From a virus: DNA of 44,926 bases. The notes below the pieces were generated by a model. The model was not told the origin of the DNA, did no database searches, and saw only the letters and a list, made by a program, of their open reading frames with translations. The position numbers were made by a program, and so were the translations under genes. Positions 4,156 to 18,565 of the stretch are shown piece by piece. The stretch's first letter is position 1; each line of letters opens with the position of its first letter. Location: positions 1-44,926 of IMG/VR virus record IMGVR_UViG_3300034069_000811; one strand, given 5' to 3'.

Positions 4156-6294
4156 CTACTCCTTTTTATAGCGCAGCGATTCGAACCCGGCCGCAGCCAG
4201 CGGCATGTCGGGCGCCCAGGGTGGGTTCGCGGCCAGCAGGGCGGACAGCCGTTCCGCGTTATGCTCGTCGGTGTCCGGTGCTTCTGTTACTAATTCATCA
4301 TGGACATGGAGCACGATTTCATAGCCGGCGTCTTCCACCGGGCGCATCGCACCGCCAAGCACGTCACGGGCAATTGCTTGCACCACATTCTCCGCCAGCT
4401 TGCCGGAATATGTGCGCAAGCGTTCCCACTTGCGGGTGTACTGGTTGTTGCCCATGTACGTCACGGTGTCGTCTACGATCTCAGGCGACGGGTAGCAAAG
4501 CACGCGGCCGGAGGGCAAGCCGATCCGCAGCCACTTGCCATCTCGCCGGACTTTGAGAACGCGGCATTGGAATGTCTTTCCGGGTACGTCAATTGCTTGG
4601 CGCACAGTTGCTTCCAGGTCGTTCCAAAGCGCTACGGTAGCCGGATGCGCCTCGCGCCACGCGAGCTTGAACGACTCGCACACAAGCCAAGCCTGTTTGG
4701 TCAGGCCGGTAGCCCCGGCCGGATCTTTCTTTTTCTTGTCACGATGCCATTCGAACATGATGTTCGCCTGTGCCATGACATGCTGCGGGATTGAGCGAAA
4801 CGCCTGCTCGGCCAATACCTCCAGGTCAATGCCATAGGCCGCGGCAAAGGTTAGGAACGCGCCCACGCCGCCGGCGTAGCCCAGGGCCAGCTCCATCACC
4901 TTGCCGATCTGGCGCATCTGCTTGTCCACGTCCTCGGGTGCCACGCCGAACGCTTTTGCGTATGCCAGCTTGTACAGATCGTGGCCGGTGCCCGCGTCGT
5001 AGTCGGCGAATGCCTTGACCTTCCATTTCTCACCAGCCAGCCAGGCCAGCACGCGGCCTTCGATGTTAGACAGGTCGGCCACCACCAGCTTCTTGCCTGG
5101 TGGCGCGATGATACAGCCGCGGATGGCGCTCGAGGTCAGCTCCATGACATTGTCGAACAGCAGGCCGGCACAATCGGCTTTAAGCGCATCAATGCCGGCA
5201 TCGATCTCGTCCTGCTTCAGCGCGGGGCGCGGCAGGTTATCGGGCTGGAATAGGCGGCCCGCCCAGCGCCCGGTGCGGAAAGCCCCACAGTATTGTTTCG
5301 TACCGCGCAGCCGGCCGTCGCTGCTCACAGACTTGAGCAATGTGTTGTATTTGCTGGTGCTGGTGCTGGATGCCTGGAGCCGGATTCTAAGCAGTTCGCG
5401 CAGCCCTTCCGGTAAGTCGGGATCCTGCGCCCGGCGCTCGATAGTCGACTTCTGCAGGTCCGGCAGATCCACCCCGTATTCGGCCAGGACATGCTCGAGC
5501 ATCGCGTCACGCTTCGTCGAGGATTCCACTTCGCCATTCGTCAGGTCAACAGTCCGCCGTTTTAGCTCAATCTGTGCCGCCCCCACAGCGCGCACAGCTG
5601 CAGACGCTAGCTCGGTGTCCATGTACATGCCGCGGTCGTTGATACGCTGGTCCAGCTGCCACAGCGCCAGTTCCTGGGCGTTAGCCGGATAGTTCCACTT
5701 CGGCATGCGCTTATGGCACTCGCGCATCGCCATGATGTCCAGGCCCGCATAGATCAGGAAGCGTTTCCACTCGGCCGGGTGCGTCTCGCGCGTGGCGCGG
5801 CCGCGCTTGAGGTTCGCGCCTGGCGGCTTGCAAAATAGCTGGATCAGCTGCTTGCCGGCCTTGTCCTTGGCGGCGTCCTGCGGCACCTTCAGCACTTCGC
5901 ACAGAGCGCCGAGCGAGCCGGGCAGGCTGTGGGCCAGGGCCTGGACCATGGTGTCACGCACGCGGTGCAGCGGCAGGTCGAAGCCGGCGTGACGCTCGAC
6001 GGTGCGGTCGAAGTGGCTGTTGTGAATCCAGATTTCTTGCTGCTGGTCTTCAAGGGCGTCATCGATGTCGTCGGTCAGGCCGCAAGGGCTGCGTTCGATA
6101 TCGTCGCCGATCAGGGTCCAGTAGTGGCCGCCAGGTGTCAGGTCACGGATCTGCACAAGGCCGTCATCCAGCGCCAGCGCGCGGATCAGTATCTCGCAGC
6201 CCTCAGCGTACTTGTGCGTGCCGTTAGTGATCGGCTCGGGGCTATAGGTTTCGTCGTCGAGCCAGATCACTTCCGGCCCCGTTCTTCGTCGCAA
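4156..6294 (-). CDS. Family-A DNA polymerase with 3'-5' exonuclease-like N-terminus
   Basis: 712 aa. Motifs: WLDDETY and HNSHFDR (exonuclease-like), ADLSNIEGRVLAW, RQIGKVMELALGYAGG, LHVHDELV. An alternative GTG start at 6270 would overlap the upstream stop as GTGA. Confidence 0.93.
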   Translation of the reverse strand: MRRRTGPEVIWLDDETYSPEPITNGTHKYAEGCEILIRALALDDGLVQIRDLTPGGHYWTLIGDDIERSPCGLTDDIDDALEDQQQEIWIHNSHFDRTVERHAGFDLPLHRVRDTMVQALAHSLPGSLGALCEVLKVPQDAAKDKAGKQLIQLFCKPPGANLKRGRATRETHPAEWKRFLIYAGLDIMAMRECHKRMPKWNYPANAQELALWQLDQRINDRGMYMDTELASAAVRAVGAAQIELKRRTVDLTNGEVESSTKRDAMLEHVLAEYGVDLPDLQKSTIERRAQDPDLPEGLRELLRIRLQASSTSTSKYNTLLKSVSSDGRLRGTKQYCGAFRTGRWAGRLFQPDNLPRPALKQDEIDAGIDALKADCAGLLFDNVMELTSSAIRGCIIAPPGKKLVVADLSNIEGRVLAWLAGEKWKVKAFADYDAGTGHDLYKLAYAKAFGVAPEDVDKQMRQIGKVMELALGYAGGVGAFLTFAAAYGIDLEVLAEQAFRSIPQHVMAQANIMFEWHRDKKKKDPAGATGLTKQAWLVCESFKLAWREAHPATVALWNDLEATVRQAIDVPGKTFQCRVLKVRRDGKWLRIGLPSGRVLCYPSPEIVDDTVTYMGNNQYTRKWERLRTYSGKLAENVVQAIARDVLGGAMRPVEDAGYEIVLHVHDELVTEAPDTDEHNAERLSALLAANPPWAPDMPLAAAGFESLRYKKE

Positions 6295-15687: not shown

Positions 15688-15701
15688 GCAGTAATTTGCA
15701 T

Positions 15702-15830
15702 TGCTTCATTTGCTTCATCCTGCTTCATTTGCTTCATTTGAAGCAGGACCAAGACCTTCTTCTGCTTCATTTGCTTCACACTGTCTATAGACAGTGAAGC
15801 AATGAAGCAGTGGAAGGTGGCCTTGAAGCA
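15702..15830. repeat. Iteron-like array: 10 copies of the heptamer TGCTTCA (6 direct, 4 inverted) around an 18-bp perfect palindrome
   Basis: Direct copies start at 15702, 15711, 15721, 15730, 15763 and 15772. Inverted TGAAGCA copies start at 15739, 15795, 15803 and 15824. Palindrome CACTGTCTATAGACAGTG lies at 15779-15796. Confidence 0.85.
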
Positions 15831-15864
15831 AGATCTAGTAATTTTTTACAGACAGAGGTGGCAA

Positions 15865-16188
15865 ATGGCCTGGAGCAAAGAAAGTCGGCAAAGTCGTGGT
15901 TACGGACGCGAATGGGAAAAAGTTCGCAAGTTCGTAATGGAGCGCGACAAAGGCCTATGTCAGGTGTGCAAGCGGGAAGGTCGGGTGGGCATGGCGCAGG
16001 CGGTCGACCACATCGTGCCGAAAGCCGAGGCGAAGCGGCTCAGGTGGAGCCAGACCAAGATGGACCATCCATCTAATCTCCAAGCCATCTGCCAACCGCA
16101 CCACGATCAGAAATCGGCGGAAGAAACCGGCCGCAGCTACAACCCGAAAGTGGAGATCGGCCTGGACGGATGGCCGGTGGAAAAGTAG
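15865..16188 (+). CDS. HNH endonuclease of the terminase-associated (HK97 gp74-like) type
   Basis: RGYGREWEKVR, CQVC, VDHIVP and NLQAICQPHHDQK are present. ATG 15865 has a GAGGTGG SD. The track start at 15802 lies inside the heptamer array. Confidence 0.85.
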   Translation: MAWSKESRQSRGYGREWEKVRKFVMERDKGLCQVCKREGRVGMAQAVDHIVPKAEAKRLRWSQTKMDHPSNLQAICQPHHDQKSAEETGRSYNPKVEIGLDGWPVEK

Positions 16189-16218
16189 TTGACAGATCGC
16201 GGGGGTATGGCTGAAAAT
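16189..16218 (+). promoter_or_regulatory. Sigma70-like promoter directly after the HNH stop codon
   Basis: TTGACA (16189-94), a 17-18 nt spacer, then TGAAAAT (16212-18). Confidence 0.55.
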
Positions 16219-16224
16219 AAGTCC

Positions 16225-16469
16225 CATGTTACGCGCTTCTGCCGGTGAAAACCGGTAGGTAATCTTCCGAAAGGCTGGCGCGGCGTCGGGAGCCTAAACC
16301 GAACGGGCCTTGCGTAGGTGGAACTACAAGAGTCGGGAAAGCCACCCGTTCCCTTCACGGGTCTATGTGAAGGGGGAGATGCGAAGACACCATATCTCTA
16401 GGGCTTACAGACCATCTGTACCGGGCGCGGCACGCACTGAGAACCCGCCACACGGCGGGTTTTCTTTTG
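16225..16469 (+). ncRNA. Candidate structured non-coding RNA or leader (about 245 nt, class unknown)
   Basis: It is bounded by the promoter above and an intrinsic terminator. There is no SD-preceded ORF. It contains a GAAA-capped 9-bp helix (16238-59) plus several further hairpins, three of them mutually exclusive. Confidence 0.45.
16442..16469 (+). terminator. Rho-independent terminator
   Basis: AACCCGCC-ACAC-GGCGGGTT (8 bp) followed by TTTCTTTTG. Confidence 0.8.
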
Positions 16470-16495
16470 CCCGTACCACATTTCCTGTGTAGAAT
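16466..16495 (+). promoter_or_regulatory. Candidate promoter for the 16540 operon
   Basis: TTTGCC (16466-71), an 18-nt spacer, TAGAAT (16490-95). GAGAGGA SD before ATG 16540. Confidence 0.4.
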
Positions 16496-16539
16496 CAAGC
16501 ATCCCTCCCGCTTTCACCACGTCAACCCGAGAGGATGCG

Positions 16540-16890
16540 ATGCCCGACAGCCCACCCGACAAAATCATCTTTGGCATTGGCCAAGGCTTTACCCGCGGCA
16601 TGGTCCGCTTGGCCGATGACACCTATGCCGACCGCTACGCCCCTGCGTTCGGTGCTGGCATCGTGACCGACAACACCGGCGAGTTCACGTTCGACACGGT
16701 GTCGCTCGCCAGCGCAATGACTTACGACTCCGACGGCAACCAGACGTCGATCATTTACGGCCCGGATCCCATGGGGCGTCGCATCATGCAGACCAGCCAG
16801 TGGCAAGGTGGCAACTTGATGTCGGACTCGGACTGGCAGTTGGTCGATGCGACCGGCAACCCGGTGAATGGTGACGGGAGCCCGAAATGA
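16540..16890 (+). CDS. Hypothetical protein (116 aa)
   Basis: ORF from the track with a good SD. 4-nt overlap with the collagen-like gene. Confidence 0.75.
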
Positions 16891-18143
16891 CGGACGAGAA
16901 CCGGATCTACAAGCGGCTTCGAAATAACACCGTCCGCAACATCAAGGACGACACCGGCAAGACGGTGGCGATCGAGAGCGCGGACGGGACGCTTCGCCTG
17001 TCGACCACCGGCGAGGTGATGCAACCCGGACCTCGCGGTGAAGCCGGGCTGACGGGCCCCGCCGGTCCGCAAGGCCCCCAGGGCGCACCAGGAGCCCCAG
17101 GAAGCGACGGAAAGGACGGGGTAAGGGGTGCGGATGGTCTGAATGGTAAAGACGGCGCTACGGGCCCTGTAGGGGCTCAGGGGCCGGTCGGGCCGAAAGG
17201 TGATATCGGTGCTACCGGTCCGCGGGGCCAGCAAGGCGTTCCGGGCGACCCTGGCATGGACGGAGGTGTCGGTCCTGCGGGTCAAGCCGGGCCGGCCGGC
17301 CCTCAAGGCGCCAAGGGCGATGTTGGCCCGACTGGACCGGCCGGGCCCCAAGGATTGCGCGGGTACACCGGCGACACGGGAGCAACTGGCTCGATGGGGT
17401 TGACCGGTGCTCAAGGCCCGCAGGGCCTGCGTGGTGACCCAGGCGCTACGGGAGCGACAGGTCCGAAGGGGGATACCGGGGTTGCGGGTGCCGTTGGCCC
17501 GAAGGGCGATACCGGGGCGGTTGGCGCGACGGGACCAGCAGGATCAACCGGCGCTGTTGGCCCGAAAGGGGATACCGGCCCGGCAGGATCAACCGGTGCC
17601 AAAGGGGACACTGGCGCTACTGGCGCTACTGGTGCGAAAGGTGATACAGGAGCGGCGGGCGTTACCGGGTCGCAAGGGCCGATTGGCTTGACAGGAGCAA
17701 CAGGACCTGCAGGTCCAACCGGCGCTACTGGTGCGCAAGGTCCGAAGGGCGACACCGGCGCAACGGGACCGCAAGGGCCGGCGGCCACGGTGGTGCCGAT
17801 GGTTTACACTAACCCCACCCGGGCATTGAACACGGCTTTCCAGATCAGCAGCACGCGCGATGCGATGGCCACATACGCGGTCGACATCACGATCAATTCG
17901 CTGGTGACAATGGCCGAAGGCACGGTGTTCCTCGAATATGCGGACAACGCCGCCATGACGACGAACCTGGTCACGGTCGTGTCCAGCACCAGCCGGCTCG
18001 GCGGCGTGTTGAACATCGCCAATACCCAGACTGCAAACGTCGCCGGCATCATCCCGGCGGGCAAGTATGTCCGTATCCGCACCCTGGCAGCGGCAGGATC
18101 GCCAACTTTCGCTGGCAGGCAAGGTCAAGAGGTGCTAATCTAA
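16887..18143 (+). CDS. Collagen-like repeat protein with a C-terminal globular domain
   Basis: 418 aa. By hand count, 84 uninterrupted Gly-X-Y triplets (about aa 48-299, nt 17028-17783), followed by a roughly 119-aa non-repetitive C-terminus. Confidence 0.9.
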
Positions 18144-18191
18144 AATTTGTGGTAAGCTAAAACTTGTTTCAACCCTCCTACAGGATCAATC

Positions 18192-18380
18192 ATGGATGCT
18201 CAGCAACGTTCGGTAATTGAAGCGCTCATAGCAAAGGACAATGTGTACGTTGATCCTTACCAAAAGGCTCAGCTCGTTCTTCAACTTGCGATTTTGGATG
18301 TTCTTCGTAGAGTTGAAAATAATTTGTACGCGCAAAACGTACCCACCCTCGCAGGAGATCTGACATGTTTCCGCAAATAG
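18192..18380 (+). CDS. Hypothetical protein (62 aa), lower GC
   Basis: ORF from the track with AT-richer composition. Confidence 0.6.
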   Translation: MDAQQRSVIEALIAKDNVYVDPYQKAQLVLQLAILDVLRRVENNLYAQNVPTLAGDLTCFRK

Positions 18381-18565
18381 AACAAGTGGTGTACGAGGTC
18401 GGCGATTCGGAAGACGATTACGACCTCATCGAGGATTGCTTGGCGCCAGGTGCGGTGATGCTGCCGGCTAAGGCCGTCGAATTGCTTATGCTCGAGCACG
18501 GCATCAGCGTGTTCGACTTGGCCGAGTGTGGCGGTGTGGTACGCGAGAAGGAGACGATGCAATGA
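18365..18565 (+). CDS. Hypothetical acidic protein (66 aa)
   Basis: ORF from the track. It overlaps the upstream ORF by 16 nt. Confidence 0.6.
   Translation: MFPQIEQVVYEVGDSEDDYDLIEDCLAPGAVMLPAKAVELLMLEHGISVFDLAECGGVVREKETMQ

Follow-up and report, generated by a model that had tools for sequence, protein, structure and literature searches.

A promoter-to-terminator cassette in an exchangeable slot of an HK97-like siphophage is a probable orphan non-coding RNA gene

The virus record IMGVR_UViG_3300034069_000811 of the IMG/VR collection, analyzed here over its whole length of 44,926 nucleotides (nt) and referred to as the window, is the genome of an HK97-like siphophage (~45 kb, 59.5% GC) in which an interval without any credible open reading frame (ORF) separates the gene of an HNH endonuclease from a gene for a protein of 116 amino acids (aa) and the collagen-like gene that follows it. 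The interval holds a promoter, a transcript of ~245 nt predicted to be non-coding and an intrinsic terminator, and it is probably an orphan phage gene for a non-coding RNA (ncRNA) of the kind known as morons, which are extra phage genes with their own promoter and terminator placed between genes that lie side by side in related phages; morons were originally described in the lambdoid phages HK97 and HK022. From 5′ to 3′, the locus contains the following features:

15865-16188, plus strand: gene of an HNH endonuclease of the packaging-associated type, 107 aa (Pfam HNH, PHROG HNH), the left border of the slot
16189-16218, plus strand: cassette promoter, with the −35 box TTGACA (16189-94), an 18-nt spacer and the −10 box GAAAAT (16213-18), from a promoter scan
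16225-16469, plus strand: predicted non-coding transcript of ~245 nt, the 5′ end placed from the position of the −10 box and the 3′ end from the U-tract
16442-16469, plus strand: intrinsic terminator, AACCCGCC-ACAC-GGCGGGTT followed by TTCTTTT, from sequence reading, with stem pair probabilities of 1.0
16467-16495, plus strand: promoter of the 116-aa/collagen-like operon, TTGCCC-N17-TAGAAT, outside the RNA unit, from a promoter scan
16496-16539, plus strand: leader of the 116-aa gene, a predicted hairpin in which the invariant CCCTCCC box (16503-09) pairs with the Shine-Dalgarno (SD) sequence GAGAGGA (16529-35)
16540-16890, plus strand: 116-aa gene, from a family of 38 proteins, all metagenomic, the right border of the slot
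16887-18143, plus strand: collagen-like gene, 3′ of the 116-aa gene (Pfam Collagen, tail-fibre PHROGs)

Homologues of the 116-aa protein (38) and of the HNH protein (more than 150, the nearest named ones from Massilia at ~60% identity) led to ~30 related loci, numbered here with the prefix L. In most of these relatives (L007, L009-L018, L020, L036/37 and L038) only 46-85 nt lie between the HNH and the 116-aa genes, as compared with 351 nt in the window, and the ~300 nt in question are therefore an inserted cassette. The empty site is seen directly in L007, and the two bordering genes are neighbours in at least 15 related loci. Other relatives carry a filled slot with similar ends: the TTGACA placed directly after the HNH stop codon also opens the cassettes of L008, L019 and L024-27, with TTGACT in L033, while a homologous terminator, CCCGC-TTCG-GCGGG-TTTTCTTTT with CACTGA before it, closes protein-coding and other cassettes. 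The form shared by the terminators of filled relatives is (CA)CTGA-AACCCGC-TTCG-GCGGGTTTTCTTTT. The exceptions are L022 and L023, which have neither this promoter nor this terminator, and L028/29, which are truncated at the 5′ side and lack the terminator hairpin. Between these ends the cargo is diverse, being a gene of 57-60 aa with its SD in L008, L019, L033 and L035, three tRNA genes in L028/29, and unrelated ORF-less sequences of 365-603 nt with abundant long helices in L022, L023, L024/26 and L025/27. The HNH protein of L033 is 98% identical to that of the window, and yet its slot holds a protein cargo, so the exchange of cargo must be recent. Altogether, the comparison of these loci indicates that the interval is an insertion in a recombination hot spot whose cargo is exchanged among close relatives. 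A transposon-like insertion was considered and discarded, as the comparison of filled and empty sites revealed neither target-site duplications nor terminal inverted repeats.

The expression signals of the cassette had been proposed from the window alone, in what is called here the sequence-only reading, and they hold up. The consensus −35 TTGACA begins immediately 3′ of the HNH stop codon and is followed, after 18 nt, by GAAAAT, with 10 of 12 consensus matches; a scan of 3 kb gave 2 promoter sites against 0.6 expected, and both flank the unit. The second promoter, described before as TTTGCC-N18-TAGAAT, is confirmed as TTGCCC-N17-TAGAAT, and an SD and the ATG at 16540 come after it. The textbook terminator at 16442-69 is also present, and its homologues recur in more than 10 related cassettes. 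A simple scan had missed it, the probable cause being the pairing of GAGAA with part of the U-tract. Its GC-rich stem runs into the U-tail UUUUCUUUU, which, judged from the sequence only, is the kind of 3′ end that Hfq-type base-pairing small RNAs (sRNAs) have. The cargo would therefore be surrounded by a putative promoter and a putative terminator of its own, as in the morons.

The RNA released from such a unit is predicted to fold as a closed multi-hairpin structure with the following elements:

16232-16429, plus strand: long-range closing helix P1, CGCGCUU (16232-38) with GGGCGCG (16423-29), pair probabilities 0.9-0.99, also in the alifold consensus
16238-16259, plus strand: hairpin H1, a 9-bp stem with a GAAA tetraloop, pair probabilities 0.95-1.0
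16265-16291, plus strand: hairpin H2 (16265-70/16286-91), tentative, with another GAAA and a small GCUG/CGGC hairpin inside it, RNAalifold consensus with a probability of ~0.5
16351-16420, plus strand: hairpins of the 3′ half, H5 (16351-58/16367-74), H6 (16376-81/16393-98) and H7 (16406-11/16415-20), pair probabilities 0.74-1.0

All the internal hairpins are enclosed by P1, which shows no sequence variation among the available copies of the RNA. H5 to H7 are identical in sequence across all three copies, and the outermost pairs of H7 have a probability of ~0.75. The predicted layout would thus be a 5′ tail of 7 nt, P1, the hairpins H1, H5, H6 and H7 with an ambiguous centre, a short linker, and the terminator hairpin with its U-tail. 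The hairpins listed in the sequence-only reading do exist (16238-46/16251-59 with the GAAA loop, 16309-30, 16334-48, 16344-62, 16351-74, 16376-98 and 16406-20), and two of the conclusions drawn from them fail. First, the interval is not richer in hairpins than expected by chance, with a folding z of −1.15 or −2.1 without the terminator and of −1.9 in the HNH coding sequence used as a control; a z of −3.0 obtained earlier relied on the terminator plus a closing helix that used bases past the U-tract. Second, the hairpins described as serially exclusive do not compete, since in the ensemble 16351-74 has a probability of ~1.0, 16344-62 of ~0 and 16334-48 of ~0.55, the latter being compatible with the dominant 16351-74.

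The strand on which this fold is found bears on the possibility that the interval works as DNA, for example as a packaging (cos) site or as a protein-binding array beside the packaging HNH nuclease. The cos site of HK97-type phages is located downstream of the HNH gene, and inverted repeats are numerous here, but most relatives do without the element, a promoter and a terminator on one strand delimit it exactly, and its G-U pairs favour an RNA fold of the plus strand (z of −2.1 or −3.0, against −1.4 for the minus strand). Moreover, the gene of the small terminase subunit lies 3 kb downstream of the interval and has a 570-nt gap of its own ahead of it. A role at the DNA level is consequently regarded as highly improbable.

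Three copies of the RNA are available, representing two alleles: that of the window and L006, that of L021 (an NCBI metagenome contig) and that of L034 (a Logan contig), the last two having identical RNA bodies. The identity between the window and the other copies is far from uniform along the locus, with 85-90% in the HNH coding sequence, 6/6 in the −35 hexamer, 9/18 in the promoter spacer, 5/6 in the −10 hexamer, 217/223 (97%) in the RNA body (16219-16441), 28/28 in the terminator, 70-85% in the post-terminator stretch and 80-84% in the leader. Five of the six differences in the body are internal and fall within 16242-16268, and the sixth (16441) lies right beside the terminator stem. Of the internal substitutions, three are in H1 and keep its pairing, namely a C-G to U-G change (16242) and a double U-A to C-G change (16246/16251) that sits at the loop-closing pair in L021 and L034, with the same GAAA loop. 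The GAAA loops adjoining the substitutions are all unchanged. At least one compensatory pair of this kind would arise from five random transitions with a chance of ~0.02. The two remaining substitutions (16266 and 16268) are paired in the alifold H2 and not in the minimum free energy structure of the single sequence, and they were excluded from the support. Covariation, on which the sequence-only reading had made its helices depend, is limited to H1, with a single compensatory pair plus a C-G pair that becomes U-G, from two alleles between which the 172 nt of 16269-16440 are invariant. Sequence identity by itself is no proof of selection, because the sharp drops at the flanks fit a recent horizontal transfer too.

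A protein-coding cargo was considered as an alternative to an RNA. As the sequence-only reading had stated, no credible ORF was found, and the longest candidate, a 60-aa ORF (16310-16492), crosses the terminator without an earlier stop codon. This ORF has no family among 1.84 billion protein representatives, with a single spurious repetitive match, and no match in Pfam, and gene callers placed nothing in the interval in three independent assemblies. Nor do the copies show a conserved small-protein frame with a synonymous substitution pattern, since the differences in the 60-aa frame are non-synonymous (TEN to TDN; ARTTFPV vs ARITYPV vs ARQLFPV), and an ORF of 9 codons at 16226 has two residue changes between copies (A to V, N to S). 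The marks of a coding gene, i.e., a ribosome-binding site, a stop before the terminator, homologues and a synonymous bias, were not found. A small protein or peptide would have to come from the 60-aa ORF with its TTG start, an internal AUG ORF of 37 aa (16380), a GTG ORF of 27 aa (16318) or the 9-codon ORF. These frames do exist, and AAGGGGG (16370-76), only 3 nt ahead of the AUG at 16380, could act as its SD, but the long ORFs run through the terminator and the evidence from homology, substitutions and gene calling is against them, so that a peptide product looks very unlikely.

The bordering sequence on the 3′ side serves the 116-aa gene. In ~25 relatives, among them those that lack a cassette, a −10 box of the type TAnAAT lies as far from the leader box as it does in the window. 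Every relative, cassette or not, shows the same order of elements before the 116-aa gene: the TAnAAT box, 5-10 nt, CCCTCCC, a C/A-rich loop and the SD. Of 16 distinct leaders, 14 are predicted to pair the box with the SD, with covariation in the lower stem (GCAUCC/GGAUGC, AUGUCC/GGACAU, GCC/GGC). In the window, the predicted hairpin extends from G16499-C16538 through C16507-G16529 and, according to these models, is the real SD-sequestering leader of the operon. In L034 the RNA cassette, the operon promoter and the leader are all present, and the 116-aa and collagen-like genes are absent; the collagen-like pair is thus an accessory module in its own right. In this contig (771-2913) the leader and the ATG of the 116-aa gene are joined to a 62-aa gene.

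These data separate the two functions that had been offered for the interval, a stand-alone ncRNA, which gains comparative support, and a riboswitch or attenuator controlling the read-through into the 116-aa/collagen-like operon, which is not supported. The latter was suggested by the location of the element, upstream of the operon and on the same strand, by its overlapping alternative hairpins and by the terminator at its end. It fails because the operon has an independent promoter and leader, conserved in each relative, because the terminator is a generic one, common to protein-coding cassettes, and because L034 carries the element without the operon. In addition, the element is missing from most relatives that have the same operon. 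It neither occupies the 5′ untranslated region (UTR) of a regulated gene nor co-occurs with one. No upstream complement to the 5′ arm of the terminator was found that could act as an antiterminator, and, in place of mutually exclusive terminator and antiterminator structures, the ensemble has the terminator stem at a probability of 1.0 and the supposedly competing hairpin 16344-62 at ~0. No Rfam aptamer matched even at E ≤ 10. The probability left for a riboswitch or attenuator is very slight, and the earlier view of the operon is corrected to one in which the collagen-like operon is under its own promoter and a conserved SD-sequestering leader. Pairing of the RNA with the CCCUCCC box, which could free the SD, was also considered and rejected, as the duplex had a z of −2.0 in the window and of −0.2 in L034, and nothing was obtained for other cargos.

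The statement that the element could not be placed in any RNA family was upheld by the searches, with 0 matches for the whole window against Rfam 15 at the gathering threshold. At E ≤ 10, queries of 1.4 kb and of 258 nt gave only terminator-like partial matches, and none of the families looked at, which included GEMM-I, tRNA, tmRNA, C4, 6S, CRISPR-DR, GOLLD, ROOL and HEARO, matched; runs at the gathering threshold on 9 loci likewise returned only terminator-like fragments. ARAGORN detected no tRNA or tmRNA in the element. BLAST of the element gave no match in 50,697 phage records and only terminator matches of ~30 nt in plasmids, and scans with exact or degenerate patterns of the RNA segments gave 0 matches in IMG/VR and 0 in GTDB genomes. 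Patterns of the terminator detected two IMG/VR loci with other cargo (L030 and L031), together with an unrelated terminator in a metagenome-assembled genome of Desulfarculia. Finally, a covariance model built from the three copies and run against 28 loci (184 kb) had full matches only in those three, and matched elsewhere only the terminator. Regarding possible targets, an antisense action within the phage was rejected, as matches of 11-12 nt were as frequent as in shuffled sequence, and so was a sponge for CsrA/RsmA, the four GGA motifs (counted by eye) being close to the chance expectation. Genes for RNA-binding partners (reverse transcriptase, Cas, Ro, ligase) were not detected among the ~35 window proteins scanned with Pfam and PHROG, a scan that did not find an integrase either.

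A further explanation is that the interval is the decayed remnant of the 57-60 aa cassette gene present in L008, L019 and L033, its frame and stop having been lost, with a promoter and a terminator that still work and a functionless transcript. Two islands of sequence speak for it. The first is ACCCGTTCC (codons T-R-S, 16344-52), which L008 and L019 share without any difference. The second, in another frame, is TAC AGA CCA TCT ... GCG GCA, or YRPS..AA (16406-32), which resembles the C-terminus YRPSAL(A/T)AA of the family, shows synonymous differences in its YRPS part and is immediately followed by the shared ACGCACTGA, as would result from the loss of the stop and ~10 nt. Aligned locally with L019, the sequence gives a z of 2.55 (p ~0.03). 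However, a hidden Markov model from five family members scored the window cargo at E ~1, like unrelated cargos, tblastn gave E values of 0.08-0.2 in a search space of 312 nt, nothing in the AT-rich UTR of the protein cassettes corresponds to the 5′ 120 nt, and the spacing of the two islands is 40 nt too short. The compensatory change in the H1 stem and the 172 invariant bases would also be unexpected in a relic, although a recent transfer could explain the latter. The pseudogene signal is thus suggestive and not significant, and we consider a remnant unlikely, while keeping it as the main alternative.

Taken together, the data are best accounted for by an autonomous cassette of promoter, cargo and terminator for a trans-acting structured ncRNA, a moron in the HK97 sense, to which we assign a probability of about 0.5 from the sequence comparisons available. 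A stand-alone ncRNA is supported because the unit is an insertion, because its promoter hexamers are conserved around a diverged spacer, because the RNA body is conserved above its flanks, and because sister phages have tRNA genes and other cargo lacking ORFs at this very site. Several observations weigh in the opposite direction. The RNA is known from only three copies and two alleles, with covariation from a single pair, and no homologues outside them were found in the phage, plasmid, viral and genome collections. Its folding energy is not distinctive (z of −1.2 to −2.1, against −1.9 for the coding control), and its complementarity to the genome of the phage itself does not exceed chance (a single 12-mer, where 0.8 are expected). 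Identity falls sharply at ~16205 and ~16473, like recombination boundaries, and the high identity of the body could come from a recent transfer of the cassette instead of selection. Finally, there are the two short colinear likenesses to the small cassette protein gene.

A plausible pathway for the autonomous ncRNA cassette would start with its insertion between the HNH gene and the promoter of the 116-aa/collagen-like operon in an HK97-like siphophage. The sigma-70 RNA polymerase of the host would initiate transcription at ~16225 and stop at the terminator (16442-69), producing a structured RNA of ~245 nt whose ends would be joined by P1 (16232-38/16423-29) around H1-H7, with the terminator hairpin and the U-tail as its 3′ end. 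This RNA would act in trans on a host or phage factor and not in cis on the downstream operon. Its accumulation, its overall fold and its action in trans are inferred; the predicted architecture of P1, multiple hairpins and terminator fits a stable trans-acting RNA. As for the mode of action, a base-pairing sRNA with an Hfq-type 3′ end is possible, a decoy for a protein or defence factor somewhat less probable, and the remaining share corresponds to other modes. The company that the RNA keeps in the slot (tRNAs and structured RNAs) hints at a role related to translation or defence. A broader proposal, which we hold to be doubtful, is that the slot is a hot-swappable expression site, largely for RNA genes, in a clade of HK97-like soil phages, and that the RNA of the window founds a new class of trans-acting structured RNAs acting on host translation or on anti-phage defence, possibly with a GAAA tetraloop-receptor contact. 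If real, the RNA would add an orphan structured member to the short list of phage ncRNAs outside the enterobacterial models. The slot, in which tRNAs, two or more uncharacterized RNA types and a small protein are exchanged, would be an obvious site to search for counter-defence functions based on RNA or for functions that modulate translation, and it offers isogenic comparisons among empty, protein, tRNA and RNA cargos in near-identical backbones.

The other cargos of the slot have features of their own. The tRNA genes of L028 (36-289, the same in L029) have an encoded CCA and correspond to Ser-UGA and to two tRNAs with the Leu anticodons UAG and UAA, which are 77-78 nt long and lack the long variable arm typical of tRNA-Leu; ahead of them, a hairpin-NCCA motif is interrupted by the end of the L028 contig. 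An undescribed family of ORF-less cargos (L022, 2535-3000; L023, 220-822; L025, 979-1500; L030, 8910-9360 on the minus strand; L031, ~4560-4760) is characterized by perfect helices of 16-22 bp with a conserved base (CACCACAC/GTGTGGTG, or CCATCAAC/GTTGATGG in L030) and a covarying outer part. These helices enclose 34-69 nt, are followed by TGAAT and a hairpin, and occur in tandem in places. The family had no match in Rfam. Its plus-strand folding z is −5.4 in L030 and weaker in L022 and L025. The cargo of L023 contains a T-loop-like GGTTCAAGTCC, and that of L030 is found in another context, adjoining an apparent tRNA 3′ fragment and an unannotated ORF on the reverse strand. The 57-60 aa cassette protein (L008, 2699-2872; L019, ~2547-2729; L033, 2889-3065) follows the pattern M..(K)(x)GQKV...TR(S/D)G...G.(R/K)G(S/A)(F/Y)(V/L)(E/D)V(D/E)H...YRPSAL(A/T)AA, with a CCTCCC box just upstream of its SD in the three loci. 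The L008 member has no PHROG match, and an index of 5.8 billion proteins gave only two matches to this protein.

The remaining genes are those of an HK97-type phage, whose host probably belongs to the Oxalobacteraceae. The gene of the large terminase subunit has 65-67% nucleotide identity to HK97-type phages across ~560 nt, and genes for a portal, an HK97-type capsid, a tape-measure protein and an endolysin are present. The replication module comprises a family A DNA polymerase, an SNF2 helicase, a DUF2800 nuclease and a primase/AAA_25 protein. L034 encodes a small terminase subunit of the Hendrixvirinae type. The true start of the HNH gene is at 15865, and a gene caller gives the same 107 aa in the Logan copy L006. 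Neither Pfam nor PHROG has a match to the 116-aa protein. The gap that separates the primase/AAA_25 gene from the HNH gene (15696-15831) has 44-45% GC, with seven direct TGCTTCA and four inverted TGAAGCA repeats, which include a near-palindrome of ~65 nt (15754-15818) with the centre CACTGTCTA|TAGACAGTG. This iteron-like array, which gave spurious matches to miRNA precursors in Rfam, could serve as an origin of replication or as a binding site for a regulator. A second AT-richer patch (18100-18400, 44-45% GC against ~60% in the genome) comes directly after the collagen-like gene, spans the small ORFs 18192-18380 and 18365-18565, and may be another imported module.

A last question is how the element compares with known systems. 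With the c-di-GMP-I riboswitch (GEMM-I, RF01051), which is found in phages and can be followed by terminators, it shares a GAAA tetraloop hairpin, and CCUAAAC...GUAGG (16293-99/16314-18) is similar to the tetraloop receptor of the Vibrio Vc2 aptamer, points that amount to no more than a lead. GEMM-I was discarded, as cmscan of the 258-nt query gave no match to it at E ≤ 10, the conserved ACGCAAAGC junction is absent and the receptor-like hairpin has a pair probability of ~0 in the ensemble; unlike the riboswitch, the window element lies outside the 5′ UTR of any regulated gene. The tRNA gene cluster of phage T4 encodes the stable small RNAs known as species 1 and 2, processed from a tRNA precursor. 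They are, like the RNA described here, phage-encoded RNAs that share a type of locus with tRNA genes (in this case the L028/L029 slot), whereas there is no sequence similarity between them, and the window RNA is flanked by a promoter and a terminator of its own, with no tRNA next to it. The morons share with the cassette a sigma-70-type promoter, an intrinsic terminator, borders that are neighbouring genes in relatives and a variable cargo, and the window phage has a packaging and head module of the HK97 type. In contrast, classical morons carry a protein gene, and here the cargo is ORF-less and sister cassettes hold tRNAs or RNA-like sequences; moreover, no integrase was found in the window, which makes expression from a prophage uncertain. 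The prophages of enterohaemorrhagic Escherichia coli are described as encoding trans-acting sRNAs and anti-sRNAs, such as AgvB and AsxR (PMC4104026). These are also small RNA genes in accessory positions of phages, each having a dedicated promoter and an intrinsic terminator of the sort to which Hfq usually binds at the 3′ end, but they have no relation to the window RNA in sequence or in Rfam, and the latter, with 245 nt and a closed multi-hairpin fold (predicted), is longer and more structured than typical seed-type sRNAs. Both morons and the sRNAs of phages and prophages are known kinds of elements, of which this RNA is a new orphan member with thin comparative support; less ordinary is the slot, at which closely related phages exchange RNA, tRNA and protein cargos while keeping a promoter and a terminator in common.

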